Positions 16,545-55,435 of a stretch of 64,000 bases of DNA are shown here, one piece after another. Numbering within the stretch: position 1 is the first letter of the stretch; every line of letters starts with the position of its first letter. Where the stretch lies: positions 42,513-106,512 of the forward strand of contig CAAEBO010000046.1 in assembly GCA_900754085.1 (NCBI GenBank), in the 5' to 3' direction. This stretch comes from Clostridia bacterium. Lineage in GTDB: Bacteria > Bacillota > Clostridia > TANB77 > CAG-508. The notes under the pieces are model-generated. The model had not been told where the DNA came from. It did no database searches and worked only from the letters and a program-made list of their open reading frames with translations. The translations under genes were made by a program, and so were the position numbers.

Positions 16545-18844
<2,300 letters not shown>

Positions 18845-47205: not shown

Positions 47206-48411
47206 ATGTTAGAAAGAATAATCTTTAATATATTATCCTTTTCTCTTTTTATAATAATCTTCTTTAAGATAATAAAAAAGAATGATACAGCTTATGTGGC
47301 TCCATTAATACTAGAAGCAATAGGAATAGCAATAGGATTAATAGAATTATTAATTGGAAGATTTTTAGGGACGTATGTTAGGGTAATTACATATTTGTTA
47401 GCAGTAGTATTACCATTTGCTATAATTTTATTAGAAAAGTATGGAATAAATTTTTCAGAATGGTTGTATATTTTCCTTGCTAAAATATGTAGCTTCTTTA
47501 AGAATAATAAAGAATCAAAAAAATTATTAATGAATTTAATTAATAAATATCCAGAAAGTTACAGTGGTCATAAATTGCTTGCACAGAATTATGAAAAAGA
47601 AGGTGGAATGAGAAAAGCTATAGATGAATATGTTAAAGCAATAGATATTAACAAAAAAGATTATGATTCATATTATAAAATAGCTGAATTGCTAGTTAAT
47701 TTAGAACAAAAAGAAGAAGCAATAGAAATGTTAAACAATTTAATTCACATAAAACCAGATTATTATAATGCCTCAAAATTATTAGGAGGATTACTGTGCG
47801 AACAAGAGAATTTTAAAGAAGCGATAAATGTATATATGACAGCACTAAAATATAATGACAAAGATAGTTTCGAAATATATTATAATTTAGGAATTGCGTA
47901 CACAAGGTTAAATGACTTTCAAAGTGCAAAAAATTCTTATGAAAAGGCTGCAAGTATAAATGCTTTAAACTATAAAGGATATTATAATTTAGGTTTAATA
48001 TCTATGTTGTATGATGACTTAGATGAAGCAGAAAAATATTTTATAGAAGGCATAAAGGTAGAAGATACAGAGCCAGAAAGTTGCTATCAATTAGCTAGAA
48101 TATACATAATAAAAGGAGAGCGAGAAAGGGCAATTAATTATTTAGATAGAGCAATAAATTTAGATAGTTCATTTGCTAAAAAAGCTGAAAAAGATCCTGT
48201 TTTTTTAACAATAGAGAGATATATTCCTAAAAATATAAACAAAATAATTAGAAAGAAAACAAAAATGACGAAATCAGAATTGTTAGTAAAAAATCATCTT
48301 GAAGAAACATATTTATTAGTAGGAAAAATAAGCAAGAATGATTTAAAAAATATGAATATTATCAAAGGAAAAGAAATAAATATACAGAAAGATGAAAGAG
48401 AAAATTTATAG
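47206..48411 (+). CDS. Membrane-anchored TPR-repeat protein
   Basis: Two N-terminal TM segments, then multiple 34-aa TPR-like repeats. Confidence 0.7.
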   Translation: MLERIIFNILSFSLFIIIFFKIIKKNDTAYVAPLILEAIGIAIGLIELLIGRFLGTYVRVITYLLAVVLPFAIILLEKYGINFSEWLYIFLAKICSFFKNNKESKKLLMNLINKYPESYSGHKLLAQNYEKEGGMRKAIDEYVKAIDINKKDYDSYYKIAELLVNLEQKEEAIEMLNNLIHIKPDYYNASKLLGGLLCEQENFKEAINVYMTALKYNDKDSFEIYYNLGIAYTRLNDFQSAKNSYEKAASINALNYKGYYNLGLISMLYDDLDEAEKYFIEGIKVEDTEPESCYQLARIYIIKGERERAINYLDRAINLDSSFAKKAEKDPVFLTIERYIPKNINKIIRKKTKMTKSELLVKNHLEETYLLVGKISKNDLKNMNIIKGKEINIQKDERENL

Positions 48412-48420
48412 GAGGCTATT

Positions 48421-49278
48421 ATGAAAAATATTTCGATTATAGGTGGAGATTTAAGAATTGTAAAACTTGTAGATATGCTAAATGCAGATGGTTATAATGT
48501 GTATACATATGGGGTAGAACAAGCCAATATTGAAAATACACAAAAATGCGAAAGCATAGAGGAAGTTTCAGAAAAATCAGATATAATTGTAAGTTCAATT
48601 CCTTTTACAAGTGATGGAATTAATGTAAATACACCATTTAGTAAAAGAAAAATATCAATTGAAGAAGTGGCTAAACATATTAAAGGTAAGACATTTATTG
48701 CAGGAAGAATAGAAGAAGAACTATACCAAAAGTTTAATGAAACAAAAGTGATAGATTTACTAAAAAGAGAAGAATTAACTGTTTTAAATACAATTGCTAC
48801 AGCTGAAGGAACAATACAAATTGCAATGGAAGAATCAACAAGAACTTTACATGGAAGTAAAATTTTAGTTATGGGATTTGGTAGAGTAAGTAAAGTATTA
48901 TCAAATATGTTAAAAGGAATTGGTGCAGAAGTATATTGTGAAACTAGAACAACAGTTAATTGTGCATGGATAAAAGCATATGGATATAATCCAATTTTAC
49001 TAGATGAATTAGATGAAAATTTAAATAAATTTGATATAATAATAAATACAATTCCTCATATTATATTAAATAAAGAAAGATTAAAAAATGTAAAAAAAGA
49101 TTGTATCATAATAGATATTGCTTCAAATCCTGGAGGAGTTGATAGAAACAGTGCTAAAGAATTAGGAATAAAAATGATTTGGGCACTTTCACTACCTGGA
49201 AGAGTAGCTCCTATAACTTCAGCAGAGTTTATAAAAGAAACATTAGAAAATATATTAAAAGACTTAAAAAACAATTAG
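48421..49278 (+). CDS. dpaA: Dipicolinate synthase subunit A (SpoVFA-like)
   Basis: IIGGDLR N-terminus, (S/N)IxTAEGT and IxNTIP motifs colinear with B. subtilis DpaA. Confidence 0.7.
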   Translation: MKNISIIGGDLRIVKLVDMLNADGYNVYTYGVEQANIENTQKCESIEEVSEKSDIIVSSIPFTSDGINVNTPFSKRKISIEEVAKHIKGKTFIAGRIEEELYQKFNETKVIDLLKREELTVLNTIATAEGTIQIAMEESTRTLHGSKILVMGFGRVSKVLSNMLKGIGAEVYCETRTTVNCAWIKAYGYNPILLDELDENLNKFDIIINTIPHIILNKERLKNVKKDCIIIDIASNPGGVDRNSAKELGIKMIWALSLPGRVAPITSAEFIKETLENILKDLKNN

Positions 49279-49296
49279 AAAAGGGAGAAACATAAA

Positions 49297-50091
49297 ATGA
49301 TGGAAATAACAATTTTTAGAGCAATAATATTAGGAGCAGTTCAAGGTCTTACAGAATTACTACCAATATCAAGCTCTGCGCACTTATTTATAATACCATG
49401 GATTTGTGGATGGGGTGAGATAGGCGATTTTGATGTAGCTTTACATTTTGGTACTTTGCTTGCAATAGGAATATTTTTCTTTAAAGATTGGTTAAAACTA
49501 ATAAAAGGTGGATATGACCAAGCTGTAAAAAAGAAAAAAACATTTGAAGGAAAAATGTTTTGGTATATAGTAATTGCAACAATTCCAGGAGGAATTATTG
49601 GATATTTACTAGATCACTATTGCTCAGATATATTAACAAGACCAGAAATTATAGGATGTGCTTTAATTTTTATGGGTATAGTTTTATATATAATAGATAG
49701 AAAAGCAAAATCAAAAGTAAAATATGAAGAAATGAATTTTAAACAAACATTTTTAATAGGTTTATCACAAGCGCTAGCGTTTATACCAGGTGTTTCTAGG
49801 TCTGGAGTAACTATGACGACAGCTAGAGCAATGGGAATAGAAAGAGAATCAGCAGCTAAATATTCTTTTATGTTATCAGCTCCAATAGTATTAGCAGCTA
49901 CAATATTTAAATTAAAAGATTTTGTTTTTAGCGTACCATTTTTTGTTGGAATACTAGTAAGCTTTTTAGTTGGAATAGTAGTTATTAAATTTTTACTAAA
50001 ATATTTACAAAAAGGCGATTTTAAAATATTTGCAATATATAGAATCGTTATAGGTATTGTTGTATTATTAATATTTATAAACAGAGTATAA
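49297..50091 (+). CDS. uppP: Undecaprenyl-diphosphatase
   Basis: VQGLTELLPISSSAHL signature, with 8 TM segments. Confidence 0.9.
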   Translation: MMEITIFRAIILGAVQGLTELLPISSSAHLFIIPWICGWGEIGDFDVALHFGTLLAIGIFFFKDWLKLIKGGYDQAVKKKKTFEGKMFWYIVIATIPGGIIGYLLDHYCSDILTRPEIIGCALIFMGIVLYIIDRKAKSKVKYEEMNFKQTFLIGLSQALAFIPGVSRSGVTMTTARAMGIERESAAKYSFMLSAPIVLAATIFKLKDFVFSVPFFVGILVSFLVGIVVIKFLLKYLQKGDFKIFAIYRIVIGIVVLLIFINRV

Positions 50092-50216
50092 GATAGAGTT
50101 TTTCTCTATCTTTTTTTGTAGAATTAAAAAAAATACTTATAAATTATTGATATTTTGAAGATAGTATTGTATGATAGTAGAGTATAATATATCAAGCGGA
50201 AAGGGGTAAAAACCTA

Positions 50217-50627
50217 ATGAATAAAATAATAGTAAAAGTACTTACCTGTTGTTTCTTAGTAACATTATTTGCATTAAGTACACAAATAGTATATGCAGAT
50301 TCAGTGGAACAAATAGAAGCACAAGGAGCAGGGCAATTAGTTCAAATAAAAGAAAATTCAGAGAAAAAACTAGAAGATTATAAAGACGAATATGGGTCAG
50401 ACGCATATGGTATTGCTGCATATATATTAAATGTAGTAAGAGTATATAGCATACCTGTATGCTTTGTAGGAATAGCAATTGGAGGAATTTATCAAATAAT
50501 AGGTATTCGTAAGCTTGATGAAAGAGATAGAGGCTTTGGAATAATGATAGGATGTATAACTGTATTAGTAATAACACAACTATTACCACTTATATTTGCT
50601 ATAGTTGTAAAAGGTTGGAGGGGTTAA
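50217..50627 (+). CDS. Small secreted or membrane protein (signal peptide plus two TM helices), first gene of the novel three-gene module
   Basis: Signal peptide ending VYA|DS, a charged 40-aa segment, then two hydrophobic helices. An SD is present, and its stop lies 4 nt before the next start. Confidence 0.55.
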   Translation: MNKIIVKVLTCCFLVTLFALSTQIVYADSVEQIEAQGAGQLVQIKENSEKKLEDYKDEYGSDAYGIAAYILNVVRVYSIPVCFVGIAIGGIYQIIGIRKLDERDRGFGIMIGCITVLVITQLLPLIFAIVVKGWRG

Positions 50628-50630
50628 CAA

Positions 50631-52925
50631 ATGAAAATATTATTTGCAGTAAATAATGAGAAAATATCAAAATCCATTATAAAGAAATATCAAAATGAAT
50701 ATAAAGAAATAATATCTTATAAAAATGTATATTATTTTAATGCTATTTTAAAAGAGTTACAAAAAGACAACACTTATGATCGAATTATAATAAGTGAAGA
50801 CTTAGAGCCTTTTACAAATAATAATTACGAACAAATAGACAAATTTATATTCGAAAGACTAGATAATATTAGTGATGAAGCTACAAATACGTCAAGATCA
50901 GATACTCCAATAATATTAATAAGTTCAGATAGACGTACAAAATCAGATGAAATATTAATAAAATTATTTAGTATAGGAATATATAATGCTCTTATTGGAA
51001 CAGACAGAAATATAGATGAAATTTGTAAATTAATCAAAGTGCCAAGAACAAAAAAAGAAGCAAAATTATATTATAAAATTGATTCAGAAGAAGTAACATA
51101 TCAATCAGAGAGTGAAAACGATGTTAGTGAGTCAGAAATACAAAGTATTTTAGCACACTATAAAAAAATTGGAAGAGATGAGCAAAAATGTGTGGATAGT
51201 TTTGACTCTATAGCTCAGCAATATACAGATATACAATTAAAAGCTATAGCAAGTTTTTTACCATTAAATGTAAAGGCTATATTAGAAGAAAGATCAGCTA
51301 AATATCAACAAATAATGTCAATTGCTGGAGGAAAAGCTAATAATACAAGTGATATTAAAAATAATGAAAATGAAGATAATGGACTAAAAATAGGATTTAT
51401 AGAAACTGCAAATAGTAAAAAGAATCTTGGAAGACCAGTTATAATCCCATCAGCTGTTAATACAAATAAAGTGAAAAAAATGTCTTCAAAATCACAAACT
51501 ACATCTGGATTAAACATACCAGAGCCAATAGAACCAATAATAGATTCTTTTGACGATGATATAGTAGAAGAAGTAGAAGAGGTAAAACCAAAAAGAAGAG
51601 GAAGACCTCCTAAGAAAAAGGTAGAGGAAAATGTACCTAAAGTAGAAGAAAATGAGCCAAAAAGAAGAGGAAGACCTCCTAAGAAGAAACTAGAAGAAGA
51701 TAATAATTTAAACGAGATGCCAGGATTTGATGAAGATGATTCAGATTTAATAAATACGATGCCAGGTTTTGACGATGACGACGATACAGATGTAAATGTA
51801 ATGCCAGGATTTGACGACGATAATACAACATTAAATAGTAGGCCAGGTTTTGATGAAGACGATTCAGATTTAATAAATACGATGCCAGGTTTTGATGATG
51901 ATAATACACATATAAATGATATTACATCAAATAATATAAATAATGGATATAATACTTTTAATTTAAATTCATCTAATAATTCAAATGATTATAATCCAAC
52001 TAAATTAACAAATACTAGAAGAACATATCCAACAGATTCTATAAATGCGTTACTAACCAGAGAAAAGAAAATAGTAACATTTGTTGGAACAAGCAAAAAT
52101 GGAACATCATTTTTAGTAAATAACTTAGCGCTTAGTTTAGCTAAAAAAGGAATTGATGTTGCAATATTGGATGCAACAAAAAATAGAAATGCATATTATA
52201 TATATACAGAAAACGAAGAAGATTTAAGACAAATTGCAGAAAAAAGTATACCAAATTTAATAAATGGAATAGCATCAGGACTAAAAGTTGAAAAAAATCT
52301 TACAGTATACACAGCATTACCAGAAGATGATATTCCAATGGAAAGATATGAAGAAATATTGGCTACTTTAATAAAAAATCATTCATTAGTACTAATAGAT
52401 TGTGACTTTGAAACAGATTTTGGATATTTTGCAGCATCACAAGAAATATATTTAGTACAAAGTATGGACATATTAACAATACAACCACTTACAGCATTTT
52501 TTAGAGATTTACAAAGTAAAAACATTTATCAACCAGAAAACTTAAGAATTGTAATAAATAAAGAATTACCAGTAAAAACATTAACAGTAAAAAATATTAT
52601 AGGCGGATTATCTTTCTATAATGATCCATCAATGTCATTCATGAGGGAATTATTTAACAGAGAAACAGCTAAATATTGTACAATTCCATTTGAAATAGCA
52701 ACATATTCAAAATATTTAGAAGGATTGGTAAATTGTAAAATATCATTAAATGGATATTCAAAAGAATTTTTACAATCATTAAGAACACTAGAAAATATGG
52801 TATATCCATTAATGGAACCAACAGTAAATTCAAATAAAAATGTTAAGGGAAACAACAGCTATGAAAGAACTAGATTTTCAAGTGAAATGAATGACACATT
52901 AAATCAAATGAAGAAAAATTTTTAG
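50631..52925 (+). CDS. Multidomain protein with a pseudo-receiver N-domain, two AT-hooks, five acidic MPGFDxDD repeats and a degenerate ParA/MinD-like (SIMIBI) ATPase domain
   Basis: N-terminus is CheY-like but has NN and E where the acidic pocket should be. KPKRRGRPPKKK occurs twice. There are 5 x 14-aa repeats. The C-terminus has GTSKNGTS where GKGGxGK[ST] is expected, and LVLIDCD as a Walker B-like motif. Confidence 0.7.
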   Translation: MKILFAVNNEKISKSIIKKYQNEYKEIISYKNVYYFNAILKELQKDNTYDRIIISEDLEPFTNNNYEQIDKFIFERLDNISDEATNTSRSDTPIILISSDRRTKSDEILIKLFSIGIYNALIGTDRNIDEICKLIKVPRTKKEAKLYYKIDSEEVTYQSESENDVSESEIQSILAHYKKIGRDEQKCVDSFDSIAQQYTDIQLKAIASFLPLNVKAILEERSAKYQQIMSIAGGKANNTSDIKNNENEDNGLKIGFIETANSKKNLGRPVIIPSAVNTNKVKKMSSKSQTTSGLNIPEPIEPIIDSFDDDIVEEVEEVKPKRRGRPPKKKVEENVPKVEENEPKRRGRPPKKKLEEDNNLNEMPGFDEDDSDLINTMPGFDDDDDTDVNVMPGFDDDNTTLNSRPGFDEDDSDLINTMPGFDDDNTHINDITSNNINNGYNTFNLNSSNNSNDYNPTKLTNTRRTYPTDSINALLTREKKIVTFVGTSKNGTSFLVNNLALSLAKKGIDVAILDATKNRNAYYIYTENEEDLRQIAEKSIPNLINGIASGLKVEKNLTVYTALPEDDIPMERYEEILATLIKNHSLVLIDCDFETDFGYFAASQEIYLVQSMDILTIQPLTAFFRDLQSKNIYQPENLRIVINKELPVKTLTVKNIIGGLSFYNDPSMSFMRELFNRETAKYCTIPFEIATYSKYLEGLVNCKISLNGYSKEFLQSLRTLENMVYPLMEPTVNSNKNVKGNNSYERTRFSSEMNDTLNQMKKNF
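51716..51925 (+). repeat. Five in-frame 42-nt tandem repeats encoding MPGFD(E/D)DD...
   Basis: atgccaggWtttgaYgaWga... recurs with a 42-nt period. The AT-hook-coding 29-mers are also duplicated at 51587 and 51656. Confidence 0.8.
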
Positions 52926-52948
52926 AATAATATAGGGGTGAAAAAGCT

Positions 52949-54070
52949 TTGACAGTAGCAATATTAGTAACTATAGTTATATTGGTTTGCATAATAATAG
53001 CGTTAATGATATATAATATTTCTATTCACAAAAAGATAGCCAAATTTAGTAATATAAGTGAAAAAATAAATGGACTAAATGTATTACAAAATTTTATGGA
53101 TACAATAGGAGAATACTCAAGTGTAGAAGAAAAAATACAAAAAATAAATGAAATTATTTTAAATAAATATAGTATATTAAAATATTCTACAATAGTTGTA
53201 TTTAATGGTGCTGAATATGATTTAAAAGCTTCAAATGTAGACGAAAAGCATTGGCAGACTTTAACCGAATTGGGTGAAGAAGAAATATTTAAAGATAGTA
53301 TTGCAACAGCAACACCAAAATATATAACTGTAGAAAAAGAATCAGAAAAGTTACCATATCAAAAAATGGAATTTGGACGAGCAAAATCTGCAATGTTCTT
53401 TCCATTGTATATAGATAATGTTTATATTGGTTATTGGTTAATAGAAAGCAGTGAAATTCATGCTTTTGATTCAATAGATACAGCCATAATAGAAGTAATT
53501 AGAGATAATATAGTAACAATATTGAAGACAGTTCAATATCAAAATACAGTAGAAAATACTGTAAGACAAGATTTATTTACAGGTTTAAATTCTGCTGAAT
53601 ACTTGTATGGGCTAGGAAAAAAAGAAATAGATAAATATACAATTTCAACAGTATGTATGTTTAGAATAACGAATATAGAAGAAATAAATGAAAAAATAAG
53701 TAGACATTTAGGTAATAAAGTAATTACAGAAGTAAGTAGATTTTTTGAAAATAATATATCTAAGGAATATTTATTTGTAAGATATATGGGACCTAAATTT
53801 GTAATAGTATTTTCGGGTGTACAATCAGAAGACGTTGCAAACTTTTTAGAAGATATAAAAGCACAAATAGAAGAAATGCAAATACATCCAGATTTAGATG
53901 ACAAAGCAATAGCTAATGTGAAAAATAAAGAAGAAATATATGTTAGTCCAAGATTAAATTTTGTATTAACATCATATTATAAAGGTACATCTATGGATGG
54001 ATTAACTAAGAAGTTAGAAGAATATATAGATAATGCAAATAAGGGTGAAAGTGATATAAATTATATTTAA
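52949..54070 (+). CDS. Membrane protein with a GAF-like domain and a degenerate GGDEF domain (MGPKF where GG[D/E]EF is expected)
   Basis: N-terminal TM. RQDLFTGLNS lines up with GGDEF RDxLTGLxNR, HLGNKV with GHxxGD, and RYMGPKFVIVF with RxGGDEFxxl. TTG start with an SD. Confidence 0.65.
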   Translation: MTVAILVTIVILVCIIIALMIYNISIHKKIAKFSNISEKINGLNVLQNFMDTIGEYSSVEEKIQKINEIILNKYSILKYSTIVVFNGAEYDLKASNVDEKHWQTLTELGEEEIFKDSIATATPKYITVEKESEKLPYQKMEFGRAKSAMFFPLYIDNVYIGYWLIESSEIHAFDSIDTAIIEVIRDNIVTILKTVQYQNTVENTVRQDLFTGLNSAEYLYGLGKKEIDKYTISTVCMFRITNIEEINEKISRHLGNKVITEVSRFFENNISKEYLFVRYMGPKFVIVFSGVQSEDVANFLEDIKAQIEEMQIHPDLDDKAIANVKNKEEIYVSPRLNFVLTSYYKGTSMDGLTKKLEEYIDNANKGESDINYI

Positions 54071-54085
54071 AAGGAGGAAAGAAGT

Positions 54086-54343
54086 ATGGCAAATTTTGAT
54101 AAAACAATGAGTTTTAAAGTAGAAAGAGATGCAAGTATTAAAGTAAAGGAAATTTTGAAAGAAGTTTATGACGCTTTAGTAGAAAAAGGATATAATCCAA
54201 TAAACCAAATTGTAGGATATATACTATCTGGAGATCCAACTTATATTACTAGTTATAATGATGCAAGAAATAAAATAAGATTAATAGAACGTGATGAATT
54301 ACTAGAAAAAATGGTTAAAAATTATATAGGATTAGAAGAATAA
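54086..54343 (+). CDS. IreB/UPF0297 family protein (YrzL-like)
   Basis: ...[21 protein letters not shown]... conserved core. Arranged as in the ireB-ruvX-yrzB operon. Confidence 0.8.
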
Positions 54344-54347
54344 TAAT

Positions 54348-54770
54348 ATGAGAATATTAGGAATAGATTATGGTGATGCAAGGACTGGTGTAGCTATAAC
54401 AGATCCATTAGGAATTACAGCACAAGGACTAAAAACTATAAACAATCAAAATAGTGATAAAATTTTACTTAAAGAAATTGAAGAGATAGTAAATGAATAT
54501 AATGTATCTAAAATAGTAATAGGTATGCCACTAAATTTAAAAGGTGAAAAAACGGTACGTGCAGAGAAAACAGAAAAATTTATTCATAAATTAAAATGTA
54601 AATTTGGTAAAATGCCTATAGAAATAGTAGATGAAAGGCTAACAACAGTTCAAGCACACAAAACTATGAATTTTTTAGATGTAAATAAAAGAAACAAAAA
54701 AAATATAGTAGATACTATAGCTGCTGTATACATTTTAGAAACATATATGAGAAAAGAAGAGAAAAAATAG
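54348..54770 (+). CDS. ruvX: Putative Holliday junction resolvase / pre-16S rRNA nuclease YqgF
   Basis: ILGIDYGxxRTGVAI RNase H-like N-terminus. Confidence 0.9.
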   Translation: MRILGIDYGDARTGVAITDPLGITAQGLKTINNQNSDKILLKEIEEIVNEYNVSKIVIGMPLNLKGEKTVRAEKTEKFIHKLKCKFGKMPIEIVDERLTTVQAHKTMNFLDVNKRNKKNIVDTIAAVYILETYMRKEEKK

Positions 54771-54847
54771 TTGCAAAAAATACAAAAATAGTATATGATA
54801 GTGAAAATTGAAAATAATAATAATTAAGATATCGAAAGGAGAATAAT

Positions 54848-55162
54848 ATGAGTGAAGATATCAATACACCAAATAATGGTGAAGAATTAGACAACATAAT
54901 AATTTTAAATGATGAAAATGGAAATGAAGTAAAATTTGAATTCTTAGATTTAATGGAATATGAAGGAGAAGAATATATAATCTTACTACCAACAGAAGAA
55001 AGTGAAGATAATGACGAAGTCGTTATCTTAAAAGTTGAAGATGTAGAAGACGATCCAGATATGGAAACTTATGTTAGCGTAGATGACGAAGATACTTTAA
55101 ATGCAGTATTTGAAATGTTTAAAGAAAAATTTAAAGATGAATTCAATTTTATAGATGAATAG
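54848..55162 (+). CDS. DUF1292 family acidic protein (YrzB-like)
   Basis: Acidic protein of about 100 aa in the conserved position after ruvX. Confidence 0.75.
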   Translation: MSEDINTPNNGEELDNIIILNDENGNEVKFEFLDLMEYEGEEYIILLPTEESEDNDEVVILKVEDVEDDPDMETYVSVDDEDTLNAVFEMFKEKFKDEFNFIDE

Positions 55163-55194
55163 TAAATACATTAAAAAAGAGGAGTAATTATATT

Positions 55195-55392
55195 TTTATA
55201 TTTAGAGAATAAAGGTTATTAGCTGAAAGCCTTTTATATATAATATAATGAAGGTAGCTTTTTTGTAGATATAGTGAAATAATAGTAGCTATATTCGGGT
55301 TGACTCCGTTAAAAGTTATAATGAGTATTTTTAATATTAAGGTGGTACCGTAAGAGTAATCTTGCCCTTAAAGGCAGGCTTACTCTTTTTTT
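55195..55392 (+). ncRNA. T-box riboswitch leader of valS
   Basis: AGAGA box and K-turn-like GA motif in stem I, candidate specifier GUA at about 55249, T-box sequence AAGGTGGTACCG at 55339-55350, and a terminator at 55352-55392 followed by a T-run. Confidence 0.7.
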
Positions 55393-55435
55393 GTATTAGT
55401 ATTAATAGGTATTTTATAAAGAAGGAGGAATTTTT

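Follow-up and report, generated by a model that had tools for sequence, protein, structure and literature searches.

A conserved membrane-hairpin gene and a TadZ/CpaE-like gene of predicted fold beside ireB in uncultured Clostridia

Three consecutive genes, here called g1, g2 and g3, lie on the plus strand of a 64,000-nucleotide stretch of DNA (the window; contig CAAEBO010000046.1) from a Clostridia bacterium of the order TANB77. The first encodes a small membrane hairpin protein. The second encodes a protein whose two folded ends are predicted to be a receiver and a ParA/MinD (SIMIBI) domain, each with its key residues replaced, and the third a membrane protein with a degenerate GGDEF domain. 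Together, g1 and g2, with g3 where it is present, may form a membrane-anchored, non-enzymatic scaffold of the TadZ/CpaE type, a reading that is preferred here but held tentatively. The module belongs to no described system; it consists of known folds in a known, TadZ/CpaE-like arrangement. An earlier note on this DNA suggested a positioning or signalling system, and this remains the best class of explanation.

The genes are found at 50217-54070, where the earlier note placed them. g1 (50217-50627, plus strand) encodes 136 residues from an ATG start and ends with TAA at 50625-50627. g2 (50631-52925, plus strand) encodes 764 residues, also from an ATG, and ends with TAG at 52923-52925; g3 (52949-54070, plus strand) encodes 373 residues from a TTG. 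The gap between g1 and g2 is 3 nucleotides (nt), not the 4 nt first given, and the Shine-Dalgarno sequence of g2 (GGAGGGG, 50617-50623) does lie within g1. g3 follows g2 after 23 nt and has a Shine-Dalgarno sequence of its own, AGGGGTGA, upstream of its start, also as described. A further 15 nt, a spacing that the earlier note does not mention, separate g3 from ireB, so that the module adjoins the ireB-ruvX-yrzB genes as had been said. By their Pfam labels these are ireB (54086-54343), ruvX (54348-54770) and DUF1292, or yrzB (54848-55162), all on the plus strand. The tight gaps are conserved, with medians of 3, 23, 13.5 and 1 nt over 78-79 loci (78 for the g1-g2 gap), and the coupling proposed for the three genes stands.

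Homologues of g1, g2 and g3 occur in at least 80 other genomes, at 47-99% identity and with the order kept. The three are genuine genes and not chance open reading frames. The relatives of g2 number in the thousands in public data, where single variants are found on up to 256 contigs. A HMMER scan of 1.84 billion representatives gives 578 clusters at E<=1e-3, 223 of them below 1e-30. When one genome per GTDB species is scanned, at least 572 species have a relative of the g2 family, and from these 80 loci were kept for the comparison of gene order at species level. The kept loci come from uncultured Clostridia throughout, nearly all of them metagenome-assembled, and include Clostridium sp. CAG:354, CAG:508 and CAG:567 and Candidatus Merdicola. 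The names among the 578 clusters are "hypothetical protein" only, and public sources that name the proteins of g1-g3 call them hypothetical in every case.

The order g1-g2-g3-ireB-ruvX-DUF1292 is intact in 80 of 80 species-level loci, as far as the contigs reach. The flanks of this block change. Upstream uppP and downstream valS are retained in near relatives only, and the gene upstream of g1 belongs to at least five different families across the loci. These upstream neighbours are often related to the envelope, for instance UppP, a D-Ala-D-Ala carboxypeptidase and a Cu_amine_oxidN1 protein.

When the most divergent relatives of g2 are used to seed a metagenome scan, a distant clade is recovered (loci L084-L097, e.g. 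L084:689-4846). Here the order is g1-g2-ireB-ruvX-DUF1292; g3 is absent, and g2 runs directly into ireB. Identity to the g2 of the window is 39-46% in the N-terminal domain and 31-46% in the C-terminal domain. With this clade included, g1 lies directly 5' of g2 in all of about 150 loci, and both the adjacency and the 3-nt coupling persist down to about 30-35% identity in g1 and about 28-31% full-length identity in g2. Because the distant clade keeps the rest of the order without g3, the conserved core is best taken as g1 and g2 joined to ireB-ruvX-DUF1292, with g3 as a clade-specific gain or loss. The proposal of a co-conserved three-gene module can therefore be kept for g1 and g2, which are welded to the ireB genes and strongly conserved together, and has to be given up in part for g3.

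The N-terminal 137 residues of g2 (50631-51041, plus strand) take a CheY-like receiver fold, (beta/alpha)5, in an AlphaFold2 (AF2) model, and the modelled domain resembles the receiver-like domain of CpaE. Strand beta-3 is RIIIS (residues 51-55). It is followed by an invariant E56 at the position of the usual phospho-acceptor aspartate, in the register given by the secondary structure of the model. After beta-1 there is no acidic pair, the residues being V7, N8 and N9, and there is no lysine near beta-5. The domain is classed as a pseudo-receiver solely on its predicted fold. No other part of g2 is so well conserved: identity is 66-76% here, against 52-66% in the C-terminal domain. A five-helix bundle at residues 165-235 (51123-51335, plus strand) is delimited by AF2 secondary structure and conservation; it gave no sequence match in the PDB.

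The C-terminal domain of g2 (residues 466-764, 52026-52922, plus strand) has the characteristic alpha/beta fold of ParA/MinD proteins in its predicted structure. The closest folds include those of BcsQ and FleN, and ParA, MinD and FleN score above TadZ. Pfam models of the ParA type stay below their gathering cutoffs for g2 (CbiA 15.5 bits against 25.4, MipZ 14.0 against 20.7), and CbiA matches at E<=0.1 in 20 of 44 relatives, with a best value of 2.5e-5. Searches of the PDB by sequence and by family profile gave no match for the folded domains of g2 and low-complexity matches only for its linker.

The P-loop of this domain reads GTSKNGTSF (residues 486-494, 52086-52112, plus strand). Compared with the deviant Walker A motif GKGGVGKS, both lysines are replaced by threonine (K11 to T and K16 to T in an alignment with the P-loops of Mrp/HypB and BceF), and a conserved lysine, Lys489, is found at a new position. 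The degenerate P-loop of a pseudo-ParA domain had been recognized in the earlier note. The motif is shared by 119 relatives, as GT[ST]KNGT[ST]F or, for the distant clade, as G[AT]xK[SA]GT[TS]F, and this argues that the P-loop has been rewired under selection and has not decayed. G486, G491, F494, D514 and D590 are invariant in the family; K489, T492 and D592 are nearly so. We take D514 to be the switch aspartate and D590 and D592 to be the Walker B aspartates, placed by hand against the motifs of MinD. Since both lysines are absent, an ATP-driven cycle of dimerisation and membrane binding is unlikely. Compared with MinD, FlhG and FleN, g2 is thus without the signature and P-loop lysines, and it has an extra receiver domain and a linker. 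No minC, minE or flagellar genes adjoin it.

The g2 protein ends in the helix FSSEMNDTLNQMKKNF (52875-52922, plus strand), which AF2 predicts at residues 286-298 of the domain model. Across the family the tail is a predicted helix of the pattern FSxxMNxTLNxMKxxY. In the distant clade the end is basic and hydrophobic as in MinD, ...KKKGLFG or ...RRGLFG. It is possible that the C-terminal helix is an amphipathic tail that binds the membrane or a partner.

The linker between the folded ends varies from about 80 to about 880 residues across the family and has 230 residues in the window. It carries two AT hooks at 51585-51689 (plus strand), KPKRRGRPPKKK at residues 319-330 and PKRRGRPPKKK at residues 343-353. 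Both contain KRRGRPPKKK, and the R-G-R-P-x-K columns are near-invariant within the clade of the window; the Pfam model AT_hook matches 12 of 44 g2 relatives (best E 1.2e-4). The AT hooks reported earlier are therefore real, but they are confined to the clade that has g3 and are not a feature of the family. Among loci with a complete g2, all 123 with at least one AT hook have g3, and all seven without AT hooks lack it.

Downstream of the hooks, a 42-nt in-frame tandem repeat of 4.8 copies (51716-51915, plus strand) encodes acidic motifs of the type MPGFD(D/E)DD, which are the acidic repeats of the earlier note. The number of (M/L)PGF-acidic motifs varies from 0 to 10 in the clade of the window. 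Even near-identical strains carry 2, 5, 6 or 7 copies of the repeat, giving g2 proteins of 723, 764, 778 or 802 residues, while both AT hooks stay constant. The linker may thus have a length polymorphism that resembles a contingency locus.

The g1 protein begins with a signal peptide (residues 1-27), identified by hydropathy and the family alignment, with a conserved cleavage motif (VYA before the cut and D after it). A variable exposed segment of about 35 residues follows, and then a hairpin of two transmembrane (TM) helices (about residues 64-97 and 105-134). The helices are linked by a strongly conserved short basic loop, GIRKLDxRDKGF. In the family alignment L71, Y77, S78, P80, G96, G106, P124 and F127 are invariant. 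Thus, g1 is indeed a membrane protein with a signal peptide. Neither Pfam nor NCBIfam assigns it to a family above threshold, and sequence and profile searches of the PDB with g1 are empty.

The Pfam model T4SS_pilin (PF18895, VirB2-like) matches g1 relatives below its threshold, in 9 of 35 relatives and in seven of eight from the distant clade. These matches have E-values of 2e-4 to 9e-3 and 16.6-21.9 bits, against a gathering cutoff of 26.6, and in the distant clade they span profile positions 20-71 of 71. The g1 of the window has no match to PF18895. The topology of g1 is that of VirB2; by the Pfam gathering score, its scores do not place it in the pilin family.

The g3 protein consists of an N-terminal TM helix (residues 1-31), a conserved cytoplasmic domain (residues 32-185) and a GGDEF-family domain (residues 186-318). 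Membership of the GGDEF family is supported by Pfam PF00990 (E 5.9e-8, 33.1 bits against a cutoff of 23.8) and by a profile match to DgcR in the PDB (E 5e-11); TIGR00254 gives 37.3 against a cutoff of 37.4. The active site (A-site) is MGPKF (residues 280-284, 53786-53800), where RYMGPKF aligns to RFGGEEF. The metal-binding aspartates are lost: IDIDKF aligns to C(L/M)F(K/R)I(V/T)N, and the replacement is family-wide. The inhibitory-site (I-site) motif RxxD is absent five residues upstream of the g3 motif, where the sequence is NISKEYLFVRYMGPKF. Because of these three changes, g3 is predicted from its motifs to be neither a cyclase nor an I-site receptor of cyclic di-GMP (c-di-GMP), and the receptor role once considered for it is not supported. 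The protein is 55-99% conserved despite the absence of catalytic and I-site motifs.

The degenerate GGDEF domain claimed for g3 is confirmed in this way, and the GAF domain claimed with it is weak. Residues 32-185 are weakly GAF-like in that GAF_2 matches in 6 of 20 relatives (best E 0.016). The g3 of the window has no such match, and a PDB profile search with these residues found none.

TadZ/CpaE, the localisation factor of Tad/Flp pili (3fkq from Eubacterium rectale; 4myr and 4dn6 for CpaE receiver-like domains), has the same arrangement of an atypical receiver and, after it, an atypical ParA/MinD domain. As in g2, the P-loop of these proteins is without the canonical GK[ST] lysine, and they are presumed to serve as a hub for localisation or assembly and not as a motor. 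The earlier note could map the genes to no Tad, Min, Par or flagellar system. None of those loci is in the window, and Pfam and NCBIfam scans of the three proteins gave GGDEF alone above threshold and no named system. However, the receiver fold of the N-terminal domain, which that note did not recognize, makes the architecture TadZ/CpaE-like, so that at the level of architecture the statement was too strong for Tad.

There are also clear differences from TadZ/CpaE. The linker of g2 is an insertion of 230 residues that contains the helical bundle, the AT hooks and the acidic repeats. The Walker-like box of TadZ is K/RGGxGx[ST], without the P-loop lysine (bioRxiv 10.64898/2026.07.08.737194), and that of g2 is GT[ST]KNGT[ST]; the missing lysine alone is in common. 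The gene lies outside a tad locus, with no adjoining tadA/cpaF, and is coupled to the 2-TM hairpin gene g1 and to ireB-ruvX. No sequence similarity between g2 and TadZ/CpaE is detectable.

The folds, the degenerate motifs, the gene structure and the conserved gene order are what the analysis shows; anchoring by g1, loss of ATPase activity, DNA binding and positioning are inferred. The pseudo-receiver and the pseudo-ParA/MinD domain of g2 would serve as interaction or dimerisation modules, not as a phospho-switch or an ATP-driven oscillator. g1, whose sole cytoplasmic part is its basic loop, would hold g2 at the membrane, and the C-terminal helix of g2 probably aids this attachment. The two folded ends of g2 would be kept apart by a disordered linker, which in the clade of the window carries the AT hooks and acidic PGF motifs. 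In that clade, g2 would most likely tether AT-rich DNA of the chromosome to the membrane or to some fixed site on the envelope.

Such a mechanism would resemble that of Noc or MinD, without nucleotide cycling. Noc of Bacillus, which binds DNA and membrane simultaneously and tethers the chromosome to the envelope, is a mechanistic analogue that g2 may follow. Noc itself is a CTPase of the ParB family with an N-terminal amphipathic helix; the fold of g2 is unrelated, and its AT hooks are of low sequence specificity. g3, anchored in the membrane and with its GGDEF domain dead, would be a sensor that serves as an accessory regulator or an adaptor and was acquired at the same time as the AT hooks. 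From co-transcription with ireB-ruvX-yrzB one would expect constitutive expression linked to growth and a role in housekeeping, which might lie in the envelope, in division or in the organisation of the nucleoid.

Several observations weigh against this account. With an invariant Walker A Ser/Thr, the invariant switch Asp514 and Walker B Asp590, and the new Lys489, g2 may still bind a nucleotide. The receiver assignment comes from one AF2 model of moderate confidence (predicted local distance difference test score, pLDDT, 74.6; predicted template modelling score, pTM, 0.56), the other four models scoring 50-66, and neither Pfam nor profile-profile comparison with CheY, Spo0F and PhoB finds a receiver signal in the sequence of the N-terminal domain. 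The hydrophobic moment of the g2 tail, 0.46, is similar to that of the MinD tail; in a shuffle control it is not significant (median fraction 0.175). The linker of the distant clade is rich in E, K, Q and R and has no AT hooks, and DNA tethering can therefore not be the ancestral core function. The co-occurrence of AT hooks and g3 is effectively one phylogenetic event, since the two define a single clade. Co-transcription of g1-g2-g3 with ireB-ruvX-DUF1292 is deduced from spacing only, and the source names seen are those of metagenome-assembled or uncultured organisms in all cases.

A bolder form of this account is that g1 and g2 are an undescribed positioning system derived from ParA/MinD, apparently in TANB77 only. 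A P-loop with a shifted lysine and a phosphomimetic pseudo-receiver (Asp to Glu) would replace the nucleotide switch, a VirB2-like hairpin would be the anchor, and the whole would be welded to the IreB gene of cell-wall signalling. This is judged unlikely. An equally doubtful proposal is that g2 is an orphan paralogue of TadZ/CpaE which, with g1, is the landmark that localises a Tad-type pilus machine of TANB77. Like TadZ, with its K/RGGxGxS/T box, g2 lacks the P-loop lysine (bioRxiv 10.64898/2026.07.08.737194), although the K/R-G-G of the TadZ box is missing from g2 as well. A Tad cluster, conserved throughout the order, is carried by about 95% of the TANB77 species that were studied, and CAG-508 is a major family of this uncultured gut order (PMC11680825). 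Its namesake, Clostridium sp. CAG:508, is among the fetched g1-g2 loci. That cluster, however, with its CpaB, TadA and TadBC, already has its own TadZ-like (231 residues) and CpaE-like (280 residues) genes (PMC11680825), and it was detected in neither the window nor the roughly 160 flanks fetched. tadA, tadB and tadC are not adjacent to g2, no paralogues or pilus genes were detected in the window or these flanks, g2 has no sequence-level match to Pfam or NCBIfam models related to TadZ/CpaE, and ParA, MinD and FleN outscore TadZ in fold. It is improbable, too, that the genes form a c-di-GMP signalling unit in which g3, as a sensor of c-di-GMP or another ligand, regulates the ParA-like g2 much as in the pairs BcsE-BcsQ and FleQ-FleN. 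g3 has a true GGDEF-family domain (33.1 bits against 23.8; E 5e-11) preceded by a conserved, weakly GAF-like one, and BcsQ and FleN are close to the C-terminal fold of g2. The set BcsQ-BcsR-BcsE-BcsF of enterobacterial cellulose secretion is similar in that it joins a MinD/ParA-fold protein to BcsE, which has degenerate receiver and GGDEF domains, and to BcsF, a small membrane protein. Here, however, cellulose synthase and the I-site are both missing, the proteins divide the domains among themselves in another way, and no sequence relationship to the Bcs proteins is detected. The MGPKF A-site, the replaced metal-site aspartates and the missing upstream RxxD speak against c-di-GMP sensing, and no EAL, HD-GYP or PilZ partner is among the genes called at the locus. 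Because g1-g2-ireB persists without g3 in the distant clade, g3 is not the core of the system.

VirB2/TrbC pilins (PF18895) share with g1 a signal peptide, two hydrophobic helices and a short basic loop, and g2 joins DNA-binding motifs to a ParA fold. The genes might then be a domesticated remnant of a type IV secretion system (T4SS) or other DNA-transfer machine, in which g1 is a VirB2-like pilin and g2 a VirC1-like ParA that brings DNA bound by AT hooks to a membrane channel. Although seven of eight g1 proteins of the distant clade match the pilin model (E 2e-4 to 9e-3), all scores of the g1 family lie below the curated gathering threshold, the window g1 has no match, and similarity between TM segments is prone to artefacts of composition. 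There are no T4SS neighbours: no gene of the size of VirB4, VirD4 or a relaxase is found in the conserved neighbourhood. With relatives absent from plasmids and viral contigs and a stable order beside housekeeping genes in hundreds of species, this origin is very improbable. That three unrelated lineage-specific genes have no joint function, and share the ireB transcript through genome compaction, is nearly as hard to credit. Gene-dense genomes of small size (contigs up to 1.7-1.9 Mb), in which nearly every gene lies on one strand, would fit such compaction, and g3 can be lost while g1-g2 stay. But the g1-g2 adjacency and its 3-nt coupling survive deep divergence while the flanks reshuffle, and the AT hooks of g2 co-vary with the presence of g3.

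Mobile-element and defence readings were also considered. A scan of viral contigs and a tblastn search of plasmids found no relatives of g1 or g2, and on this ground both readings are rejected. PADLOC models have no match to g1, g2 or g3. Together, these results argue for a chromosomal housekeeping function.

In other Firmicutes, IreB/ReoM is a substrate of the PASTA kinase that controls the synthesis of peptidoglycan. The constant association of the module with ireB suggests a connection between cell-wall control of the PASTA-kinase/IreB type and cell organisation. If an undescribed positioning system were at work, it would be a new way for monoderms to couple the placement of the chromosome or division site to the growth of the envelope. 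g2 offers a natural case of a P-loop remodelled under selection, and not decayed, in a ParA/MinD protein, and of a TadZ-like architecture used outside a pilus locus. It bears on how "dead" ATPases and "dead" receivers act as spatial organisers. No cultured host is known for the module. TANB77 is an abundant uncultured order of the human gut, linked to the response to cancer immunotherapy (PMC11680825).

The window has about 27% G+C and a strong strand bias. A terminator-like hairpin that ends uppP (bacA), with a 9-bp stem followed by a T run (50090-50112, plus strand), marks the 5' boundary of the transcription unit. Another lies 3' of DUF1292 (55361-55378, plus strand). These are the only two terminator-like sites on the plus strand of the region, and the scan of that strand found none between g3 and ireB. 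On the minus strand, terminator-like matches at 51596-51611 and 51665-51680 arise where the sequence that encodes the AT hooks (AAGAGGAAGACCTCCT), which is duplicated, is read as its reverse complement. They were rejected as terminators inside g2, being an artefact of that duplication.

A candidate promoter of the sigma-70 type, TTGATA-17-TATGAT (50147-50175, plus strand), lies 42 nt 5' of g1; it is a consensus match only. The best sigma-70 match of the region, TTGACA-17-TATAGT (11 of 12 positions, 52949-52977), overlaps the TTG start of g3. It is given no weight because the number of promoter-like matches in the region equals the expectation from shuffled sequence.

An Rfam scan of 49000-56000 found no family, and so no leader RNA and no T-box. 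Before valS there is a gap of 273 nt (55163-55435), in which the hairpin at 55361-55378 stands as it would in a T-box leader; no Rfam family is reached there at the gathering score. An antisense open reading frame of 121 residues (53539-53904, minus strand) lies inside g3. It is unsupported and probably spurious in such AT-rich sequence.

Upstream of the module, a gene of the DpaA_N type, like subunit A of dipicolinate synthase, is found at 48421-49278 without an adjoining DpaB-like partner. Its neighbours on either side are the gene for a membrane TPR protein (47206-48411) and uppP (49297-50091). An operon like spoIIAA-spoIIAB-sigF (STAS, HATPase_c, sigma-70) lies about 6 kb downstream of the module at 60267-61446, and another is seen at 17521-18400 of locus L001. 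Its presence indicates that the organism is probably a spore former.

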